Source: Eledone cirrhosa (Eukaryota). From it: DNA of 64,000 nt. The stretch lies in the NCBI GenBank assembly GCA_964016885.1, contig OZ024743.1, positions 316,572,001-316,636,000 of the forward strand, written 5' to 3'. Positions within the stretch are counted from its first letter, which is position 1; every line of letters starts with the position of its first letter. Position numbers and translations under genes: made by a program. The notes under the pieces were generated by a model. It did no database searches and was not told where the DNA came from. It saw only the letters and a program-made list of their open reading frames with translations. This document shows positions 37,076 to 61,755 of the stretch, in pieces.

Positions 37076-37324
37076 GATTGCGTTTGGGGGTTGGGGGCGG
37101 TGGGGGCGAGGGGCGATGGGGTTATGTTAGCCGTCCGCGGTCGAAACAATGAGGAGTGCTCGCATTCTCGTCCAAGAGGTGAATTTGTCTTTATCTTTGG
37201 CATTGTCGCTGAGCGTCCAGATTTTTCTCTCTCACCTCCACTCTCCAGGATTCCGCAGTCCATCCATCCATCATATATCGTATATCGAAAGGCAACCGGG
37301 CAAGCGATAGTATAGGCCTCTGGT

Positions 37325-37415
37325 TTCTGATTGGTCCGCGTAATAATACTGGTGATGCGTGGGGGCTCTGTTTTATGATTGGTCCACGTAATAGCAATGG
37401 TGGTGCGTGGGGGTG
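37325..37415 (-). promoter_or_regulatory. Two ~49-bp direct repeats, each with a CCAAT box, in the LINE 5' UTR
   Basis: TGATTGGTCCRCGTAATA occurs at 37328 and 37377 (GGACCAATCA on the minus strand). Confidence 0.45.
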
Positions 37416-37428
37416 GGAGGGGTGTTGG

Positions 37429-58000: not shown

Positions 58001-61000
58001 GGAGGGGGCCACATGATGGCTGTGAGTGTTAGGCGTTTGACCGCCCCGTGCCTTCGAAGAAGGAAGAAGGAAAGGATTTTTTTTTTTTTGTTTTTTGTTT
58101 TGAAGATACGCTAGAATTAGGGAGTGAGGTTTGAAAATACGTTAGGAATTAAGGTTTGAAAATAGCTAGCAAGAAGGTAATGATTGAATGGGGTCCATGC
58201 ATTTAACAAGCGATTAACAAAAATACAAAATTTGTTCTGTTAAATACGTCCAAAAACCTACGTATTTAGCAATTAATAGAAACAGAAAATGTAGTTTGTT
58301 TTAGCGATAGATTGGCTATTTGGACTTGATACGAAATATGGATTGTTTTGAAAATACGCTAGAATTAAGATTTGTGGAGAGAGAGAGATGAAGTCTGTAC
58401 ATTACGTTTACATGAATATCGTGGACAGCAAGCAATGAAATGAAATTTGGCGAAGTGAATTCCTATCATATATTTATAGAGAGAGAGAGAGAGTGAGAGA
58501 GAGCGAGGGGAGGGGGCCACATGATGGCTGTGAGTGTTAGGCGTTTGACCGCCCCGTGCCTTCGAAGAAGGAAGAAGGAAAGGATTTTTTTTTTTTTTTT
58601 TTTTTGTTTTGAAGATACGCTAGAATTAGGGAGTGAGGTTTGAAAATACGTTAGGAATTAAGGTTTGAAAATAGCTAGCAAGAAGGTAATGATTGAATGG
58701 GGTCCATGCATTTAACAAGCGATTAACAAAAATACAAAATTTGTTCTGTTAAATACGTCCAAAAACCTACGTATTTAGCAATTAATAGAAACAGAAAATG
58801 TAGTTTGTTTTAGCGATAGATTGGCTATTTGGACTTGATACGAAATATGGATTGTTTTGAAAATACGCTAGAATTAAGATTTGTGGAGAGAGAGAGATGA
58901 AGTCTGTACATTACGTTTACATGAGTATCGTGGACAGCAAGCAATGAAATGAAATTTGGCGAAGTGAATTCCTATCATATATTTATAGAGAGTGAGAGAG
59001 AGCGAGGGGAGGGGGCCACATGATGGCTGTGAGTGTTAGGCGTTTGACCGCCCCGTGCCTTCGAAGAAGGAAGAAGGAAAGGATTTTTTTTTTTTTTTTT
59101 TTTTTTTTATTTTGAAGATACGCTAGAATTAGGGAGTGAGGTTTGAAAATACGTTAGGAATTAAGGTTTGAAAATAGCTAGCAAGAAGGTAATGATTGAA
59201 TGGGGTCCATGCATTTAACAAGCGATTAACAAAAATACAAAATTTGTTCTGTTAAATACGTCCAAAAACCTACGTATTTAGCAATTAATAGAAACAGAAA
59301 ATGTAGTTTGTTTTAGCGATAGATTGGCTATTTGGACTTGATACGAAATATGGATTGTTTTGAAAATACGCTAGAATTAAGATTTGTGGAGAGAGAGAGA
59401 TGAAGTCTGTACATTACGTTTACATGAATATCGTGGACAGCAAGCAATGAAATGAAATTTGGCGAAGTGAATTCCTATCATATATTTATAGAGAGAGAGA
59501 GAGAGTGAGAGAGAGCGAGGGGAGGGGGCCACATGATGGCTGTGAGTGTTAGGCGTTTGACCGCCCCGTGCCTTCGAAGAAGGAAGAAGGAAAGGATTTT
59601 TTTTTTTTTTTTTTTTGTTTTGAAGATACGCTAGAATTAGGGAGTGAGGTTTGAAAATACGTTAGGAATTAAGGTTTGAAAATAGCTAGCAAGAAGGTAA
59701 TGATTGAATGGGGTCCATGCATTTAACAAGCGATTAACAAAAATACAAAATTTGTTCTGTTAAATACGTCCAAAAACCTACGTATTTAGCAATTAATAGA
59801 AACAGAAAATGTAGTTTGTTTTAGCGATAGATTGGCTATTTGGACTTGATACGAAATATGGATTGTTTTGAAAATACGCTAGAATTAAGATTTGTGGAGA
59901 GAGAGAGATGAAGTCTGTACATTACGTTTACATGAATATCGTGGGCAGCAAGCAATGAAATGAAATTTGGCGAAGTGAATTCCTATCATATATTTATAGA
60001 GAGAGAGAGAGAGTGAGAGAGAGCGAGGGGAGGGGGCCACATGATGGCTGTGAGTGTTAGGCGTTTGACCGCCCCGTGCCTTCGAAGAAGGAAGAAGGAA
60101 AGGATTTTTTTTTTTTTTTTTTTTTTTTTGAAGATACGCTAGAATTAGGGAGTGAGGTTTGAAAATACGTTAGGAATTAAGGTTTGAAAATAGCTAGCAA
60201 GAAGGTAATGATTGAATGGGGTCCATGCATTTAACAAGCGATTAACAAAAATACAAAATTTGTTCTGTTAAATACGTCCAAAAACCTACGTATTTAGCAA
60301 TTAATAGAAACAGAAAATGTAGTTTGTTTTAGCGATAGATTGGCTATTTGGACTTGATACGAAATATGGATTGTTTTGAAAATACGCTAGAATTAAGATT
60401 TGTGGAGAGAGAGAGATGAAGTCTGTACATTACGTTTACATGAATATCGTGGACAGCAAGCAATGAAATGAAATTTGGCGAAGTGAATTCCTATCATATA
60501 TTTATAGAGAGAGTGAGAGAGAGCGAGGGGAGGGGGCCACATGATGGCTGTGAGTGTTAGGCGTTTGACCGCCCCGTGCCTTCGAAGAAGGAAGAAGGAA
60601 AGGATTTTTTTTTTTTTGTTTTTTGTTTTGAAGATACGCTAGAATTAGGGAGTGAGGTTTGAAAATACGTTAGGAATTAAGGTTTGAAAATAGCTAGCAA
60701 GAAGGTAATGATTGAATGGGGTCCATGCATTTAACAAGCGATTAACAAAAATACAAAATTTGTTCTGTTAAATACGTCCAAAAACCTACGTATTTAGCAA
60801 TTAATAGAAACAGAAAATGTAGTTTGTTTTAGCGATAGATTGGCTATTTGGACTTGATACGAAATATGGATTGTTTTGAAAATACGCTAGAATTAAGATT
60901 TGTGGAGAGAGAGAGATGAAGTCTGTACATTACGTTTACATGAATATCGTGGACAGCAAGCAATGAAATGAAATTTGGCGAAATGAATTCCTATCATATA

Positions 61001-61755
61001 TTTATAGAGAGAGAGAGAGAGTGAGAGAGAGCGAGGGGAGGGGGCCACATGATGGCTGTGAGTGTTAGGCGTTTGACCGCCCCGTGCCTTCGAAGAAGGA
61101 AGAAGGAAAGGATTTTTTTTTTTTTTTTTTTTTGTTTTGAAGATACGCTAGAATTAGGGAGTGAGGTTTGAAAATACGTTAGGAATTAAGGTTTGAAAAT
61201 AGCTAGCAAGAAGGTAATGATTGAATGGGGTCCATGCATTTAACAAGCGATTAACAAAAATACAAAATTTGTTCTGTTAAATACGTCCAAAAACCTACGT
61301 ATTTAGCAATTAATAGAAACAGAAAATGTAGTTTGTTTTAGCGATAGATTGGCTATTTGGACTTGATACGAAATATGGATTGTTTTGAAAATACGCTAGA
61401 ATTAAGATTTGTGGAGAGAGAGAGATGAAGTCTGTACATTACGTTTACATGAATATCGTGGACAGCAAGCAATGAAATGAAATTTGGCGAAGTGAATTCC
61501 TATCATATATTTATAGAGAGAGAGAGAGAGAGTGAGAGAGAGCGAGGGGAGGGGGCCACATGATGGCTGTGAGTGTTAGGCGTTTGACCGCCCCGTGCCT
61601 TCGAAGAAGGAAGAAGGAAAGGATTTTGTTTTTTGTTTTTTTTTTTGTTTTGAAGATACGCTAGAATTAGGGAGTGAGGTTTGAAAATACGTTAGGAATT
61701 AAGGTTTGAAAATAGCTAGCAAGAAGGTAATGATTGACTGGGGTCCATGCATTTA
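37429..61755. repeat. Tandem array of 48 ~500-513-bp monomers plus a ~43-bp partial copy
   Basis: TAGCTAGCAAGAAGGTAATG recurs at ~37429, 37941, 38439 ... 61200, 61713. Monomers are near-identical, with length variation in the GA, GAAGAAG and poly-T tracts. Confidence 0.98.

Follow-up and report, generated by a model that had tools for sequence, protein, structure and literature searches.

The window, a 64,000-bp stretch of the 3.0-Gb Eledone cirrhosa genome (G000:C4:316572001-316636000; C1 to C4 designate contigs and L numbers designate loci), contains a LINE on the minus strand with a 3.8-kb body, an APE-RT-PHD architecture and a (GAT)n tail. This LINE is joined to a long tandem array (Table 1). 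An anchor search in the window located 49 anchors, which delimit 48 full units of 496-513 bp each from position 37430 onwards. A 43-bp partial unit closes the array at 61755, giving a total of 24,326 bp. The differences in unit length stem mostly from an (AG)n and a T tract. TRF made no array call because its period limit is 500.

Table 1. Features of the LINE and its 5' array in the window.
Feature	Position	Strand	Basis
TA/CA-rich flank at the 5' end of the array	61756..63020	.	sequence
Tandem array of the LINE 5' monomer, 48 units plus 43-bp partial unit	37430..61755	-	anchor search, private variant, block pattern
ATG at position 40 of monomer 1	37467..37469	-	frame comparison among copies
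Tether (5' UTR), 166 bp, from monomer 1 to ORF start, GC 51%	37264..37429	-	copy comparison
Single ORF, APE endonuclease - reverse transcriptase - PHD finger (left border approximate)	33990..37263	-	Pfam domains
LINE 3' UTR (ORF border approximate)	33617..33989	-	sequence
(GAT)n microsatellite tail, 8 repeats, 3' end of the element	33592..33616	-	sequence

A preliminary description of this DNA had set the start of the array at 37080 and treated 37080-37430 as UTR throughout. The array instead starts at 37430, the segment 37080-37263 is coding with the ORF-start ATG at 37263, and only 37264-37429 forms the untranslated tether. Direct reading of the junction in the window bore out that no filler separates the first unit from the LINE. 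The array does pass into (TA)n at 61756, and the 5'-truncated ends at 3544 and 24098 likewise enter TA repeats. The formula X(YX)48 proposed for the array holds as far as 48 units and a 43-bp remainder are concerned, but the 43-bp X has no special status. Its reading as a designed border was rejected, as other arrays stop at phases 19, 25, 73, 134, 213, 286, 360, 461 and more.

A match of 6-7 bp between the 5' and the 3' flank is a possible target-site duplication that is indistinguishable from chance in such TA-rich DNA. Judged from the sequence, the LINE insertion appears to have landed in an older local duplication. The flanks of the LINE and its array (33150-33592 and 61920-62360) share a degenerate TA/CA stretch with 79% identity over 455 bp, within which a distinctive core of ~110 bp is common to both sides. 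Elsewhere in the window, a ~4-kb block of RTE fragments, TA microsatellites and a short AT-rich ORF is present in four tandem copies (5300-21300), and long tandem duplications seem to be common around this region. A 105-bp minisatellite with 3.1 copies, 98% identical, is located at 27172-27493. The 359-aa frame at 28207-29286 on the plus strand resembles a fragment of a Helitron Rep/helicase. The 131-aa cysteine-rich frame at 30974-31369 on the minus strand, which has a signal-peptide-like start, may be a host exon for a protein of the Ly6/three-finger type.

In the ORF of the LINE, Pfam identifies Exo_endo_phos and RVT_1 domains in addition to the PHD finger. The window copy is broken by indels near 34503, 36901 and 37102 compared with an unbroken sister. 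Across the family, the frame of ~1076 aa that begins at the ATG equivalent to 37263 is unbroken in 34 of 72 copies. In 11 of 71 copies the ATG of monomer 1 shares the frame of the ORF and extends the product to 1146 aa; in each additional unit, this ATG opens an upstream ORF of 17 codons. The monomer ATG was rejected as an obligatory start, since the youngest subfamily is out of frame there, yet unbroken from the next ATG. A separate ORF1 is absent: upstream of the ORF lie only the 166-bp tether and the monomers, whose ATG-led unit frames comprise at most 34 codons. Tails of 4-9 trinucleotide repeats are present in all 66 copies with a located 3' end (70 aligned). PDB matches to the reverse transcriptase were confined to L1, R2 and bacterial enzymes, and the 120 homologues were listed without clade names. 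Based on its structure, namely a single ORF encoding APE and then RT, the lack of ORF1, the short body and the microsatellite tail, the element is classified as RTE-like. RTE-BovB elements have a mean length of 3583 bp (PMC10294476). RTE-2_OV of Octopus vulgaris is described with one ORF of ~1100 aa encoding an endonuclease, a reverse transcriptase and a zinc finger, a microsatellite 3' end and a 5' UTR of ~600 nt, and the word "tandem" is absent from the main text of that paper (PMC9115989). The likeness of the present element to RTE-2_OV lies in this published description (one ORF, domains, microsatellite 3' end).

In every sampled copy that extends to the 5' end of the family, this end is formed by the unit. 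All 30 best matches to the stretch 37090-37428, the window copy included, continue into the unit. Genome-wide, the exact tether-unit joint is found at 168 places and the unit-unit joint at 796, while the exact tether 24-mer occurs at 328 places and a unit 26-mer at 1221. Because the tether 24-mer count exceeds the exact-joint count, 40 further C1 tether loci without an exact joint were sampled, chosen regardless of the unit. All 40 run into the unit, mostly in an older variant, as does an inverted 41st locus. A LINE body underlies each of the 20 C1 clusters of unit-unit joints, and all eight leftover unit sites among the matches listed for the unit 26-mer are LINE-linked. No array free of the LINE was found among the C1 sites checked (20 clusters, and 8 leftover sites among the matches listed), and at these sites the monomer does not form the independent arrays of a free-standing satellite family. 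The proposal that the array is the amplified 5' monomer of the LINE is thus supported by family-wide continuity from tether to unit, and the two checks suggested with it, namely for the monomer on other full-length copies and for arrays unlinked to the LINE, both came out in its favour. The tether-unit joint is also present, with 7 differences, on a contig of a run that bears the label of another organism. In RAD reads of another sample, 399 unit-unit joints stand against fewer than 10 reads over the tether joint, a ratio subject to uneven RAD sampling; this comparison left out 37731-37940 and hence the private variant described below. One second marker lies 1 kb beyond the unit of L156.

Most copies carry little of the array. 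Across C1 and C2, 63 loci have the exact joint. Measured from the tether, their arrays end before 500 bp in 27 cases and at 500-1000 bp in 21, so that 48 of the 63 stop within two units. Three end at 1-2 kb, six at 2-5 kb and six beyond 5 kb, with a maximum of 10.3 kb. Arrays of more than 5 kb were found at at least eight loci besides the window, whose array is not unique. Among the loci followed up for their apparent length, one at C3:175.2 Mb has an array of 14.9 kb. Another, at G000:C4:339166659-339206484 (L043-L045, L121, L122), holds the longest array seen, with 39.8 kb and 95 anchors, in which units of 501 bp and of 213 bp are combined into higher-order patterns. The 5' ends are scattered across the whole unit, and 61 of 73 abut TA repeats in a loose test. 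At L061, L062, L063, L141, L142 and L181 the 5' flanks consist of a short-period repeat that differs from (TA)n and is possibly another preferred target.

The rate at which copies are lost to truncation was estimated from two body variants. Between them the count falls from 499 to 131 copies across 1414 bp, corresponding to a loss of ~0.95 per kb; this value derives from one marker pair, whose two variants are carried by the same 35 of the 70 copies. Four body 24-mers were also used for a truncation curve, which was dropped because their counts of 1783, 2816, 601 and 328 are non-monotonic. The first kilobase of monomer loses copies at about the pace of the body, and most 5' ends are therefore ordinary truncations. 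At the body loss rate, 15 of the 63 ends would be expected 1-2 kb into the array vs 3 observed (p 5e-5), and in an older group of copies the array exceeds 1 kb in 1 of 48 (p 2e-9 vs the body loss rate). These two observations indicate that the template likely stops within two units, and the transcript thus likely carries two units at most. Arrays of more than 5 kb, in contrast, number 6 of 63 vs 0.56 expected (p 2e-5), and single-pass copying of 24.3 kb has a probability of ~1e-10 at the measured loss rate. Excess and improbability together argue for growth as a step of its own, and inserts that hold more than one unit likely undergo it in place.

The units of the window array were copied from one another after mutating. 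One substitution is shared by all 48 units, and its pattern, searched across the genome, matches at 48 places, every one of them within this array. Each of the long arrays is marked by a different unit variant. Five further window variants, unseen at the other compared loci, are common to 2-10 units each, and 8 singleton variants were observed vs ~27 expected had the units aged independently. Furthermore, the unit types recur in blocks 5-7, 14-16 and 20-22, which represent a three-unit word present three times, and none of 20,000 shuffles reached this pattern. At G000:C1:142.9 Mb, a 1547-bp block of monomer and flanking DNA is repeated, and this repetition must postdate the insertion because the block includes flank. 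The pair of a long and a 167-bp segment is repeated in L140 and single in L065 and L115.

In all 16 arrays of at least five units, the first and the last unit differ by 0-4 substitutions, and in none of the 16 is the first unit the same as in the three nearest body sisters. The divergence from the nearest body sister is 1.6% for monomers vs 0.22% for bodies, the monomer figure being inflated by alignment near simple tracts. The arrays are internally uniform, yet different between sister copies. The loci L107, L108, L110, L117, L080 and L092, whose bodies are 0-6 changes apart, display all four combinations of two monomer variants. Recombination of the monomers therefore outpaces the divergence of the bodies.

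Arrays show no increase in length with age (Spearman -0.29, p 0.19, 22 arrays of more than 1 kb). L110 combines 7 identical units with 0 private body changes, while L080 has 13 uniform units with 1 such change and L117 has 22 with 2. Arrays of more than 1 kb are present in 1 of 48 copies of the older group vs 15 of 63 (p 0.0009); the median nearest-neighbour divergence is 0.43% in the older group vs 0.14%, with three poorly aligned rows left out. An initial figure of 7 of 40 older-group arrays above 1 kb was discarded, as these had been chained through simple repeats, and unit-marker counts and a stricter walk gave 1. Slow growth alone predicts neither the uniform young arrays nor the array-poor older group. 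Probably, array growth is rapid and is followed by collapse or purging; with a considerably smaller chance, the reverse transcriptase seeds them at integration by recopying a redundant end, and the two processes can combine.

In element sense, the unit contains a GC box, a TATA-like box and a CCAAT motif. Its GC content is 36%, and its 16 CpG vs 13.8 expected mark it as undepleted, albeit not a CpG island. A fixed start site at unit position 286 was considered, as 6 of 73 ends fall at 281-287, 30 bp past the TATA-like box, but the peak is not significant (scan p 0.12); in further sets, 0 of 18 and 0 of 48 5' ends lie at this position. The monomer is regarded as a candidate promoter.

Taken together, there is a good case that the array consists of the tandem monomer found at the 5' end of a young family of RTE-like LINEs, carried on one broken copy and likely grown to 48 units in situ after insertion. 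Transcripts would start inside the monomers, for which a promoter function is predicted by position and by analogy to mouse L1, and would usually carry no more than two units. Ordinary 5' truncation would stop most copies in unit 1 or 2. A copy with more than one unit possesses a 5' direct repeat, and unequal exchange or replication slippage could multiply one turn to 5-90 units. Long arrays may later shrink or be purged, hence their rarity in older copies.

It is possible, though rather unlikely, that the arrays are born long at integration. In this case the reverse transcriptase would arrive at the RNA's redundant 5' end, re-anneal one unit back and recopy many times, and later exchange would merely edit or shrink the array. 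The uniform arrays of the youngest copies L110, L080 and L117 fit this mechanism, as do the ending chance of ~0.1 per 500 bp past 1 kb, the rarity of arrays in older copies and the recombination of unit variants among near-identical bodies. Such recopying, however, cannot yield the blocks of several units and the private variants common to several units that are seen in the window and at C4:339 Mb, nor the flank-containing repeat at C1:142.9 Mb. It can be combined with growth in place as a seeding step. If it is true, new copies could arrive with 5-20 identical 500-bp units, later exchange would grow the arrays to 24-40 kb or trim them, and the genome would hold dozens of independently dated satellite births by a retrotransposon enzyme.

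A real structure with a wrong copy number in the assembly is improbable. Several other arrays are fully uniform, a situation in which assemblers can err, but the window units differ by ordered substitutions and tract lengths, and the 399 unit-unit joints in raw reads of another sample place tandem units outside the assembly. The preliminary description further regarded LINE and array as one unit of ~28 kb. This is correct for the single locus, whereas its movement as one piece very likely did not occur. It is highly improbable that both moved as a single 28-kb transcript from a source that already had a long array: the outer array end does resemble any 5' end, with a partial unit followed by (TA)n, but the probability is ~1e-10 as calculated above, the window variant is found at no second locus and few ends lie in units 3-4. 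The window's variant might have a source that this assembly lacks. Finally, an independent satellite with a LINE inserted by chance at its edge is scarcely credible and is refuted for the loci checked, given the exact tether-unit joint at 168 places, no unlinked array among the C1 sites checked and no point found in its support.

Among known systems, mouse L1 comes closest. As described in PMC6454616, its copies carry monomers and a tether, with a mean of ~3 units per copy; the longest array has 50 units (~11 kb), and rare long arrays are ascribed to unequal crossing-over. The same source presents two models for monomer multiplication, the crossing-over model being given there without quantitative support. 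More than 10 units are reported at 7 of 5765 mouse loci, and older subfamilies have fewer units (PMC9022269). Other mammalian L1 elements also show duplicated 5' UTR motifs (PMC5381506). As in mouse L1Md (A, Tf, Gf), tandem units are tethered to the ORF here, their number varies per copy and older copies have fewer of them. Unlike mouse L1, the present element is RTE-like with a single ORF, and its AT-rich unit of ~500 bp differs from the CpG-island-like unit of ~200 bp in mouse. A typical copy has fewer than two units vs ~3 in mouse, whereas arrays of at least 10 units are far commoner (6 of 63 vs 7 of 5765 with more than 10) and arrays reach 24-40 kb vs a maximum of ~11 kb. In addition, the 5' ends show no significant start-site peak, unlike the phased expectation of the mouse L1 type.

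Satellites derived from retroelement UTRs are reviewed in PMC9659126 and include PisTR-A (Ogre 3' UTR), the common cetacean satellite (L1 3' end) and chicken HinfI (CR1). In these cases, as here, a non-coding part of a retroelement was amplified into long tandem arrays. In contrast to them, the source here is the 5' end, each checked array is still on its parent copy and has grown separately, and no free or spreading satellite family was found at the loci checked. No paper on 5' monomer arrays of RTE elements was found in a literature search that ran without subscription journals, Repbase entries and supplements and may have missed spellings with prime signs. The novelty lies in the clade, in the size of the units, in how frequent and how long the arrays are, and in the many births that occurred separately within a single genome.

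In repeat annotation, such elements will come out as two items, a 3.8-kb LINE and a seemingly unrelated satellite. The monomer design of mouse L1 recurs in a LINE with one ORF, whose long arrays had separate origins at many loci; many copies have likely grown private satellite arrays in place. Each array can be dated by its own LINE body, and the family thus amounts to a natural experiment, repeated many times, on how satellites arise, grow and are lost. Such loci offer a direct separation of growth at integration from later growth.
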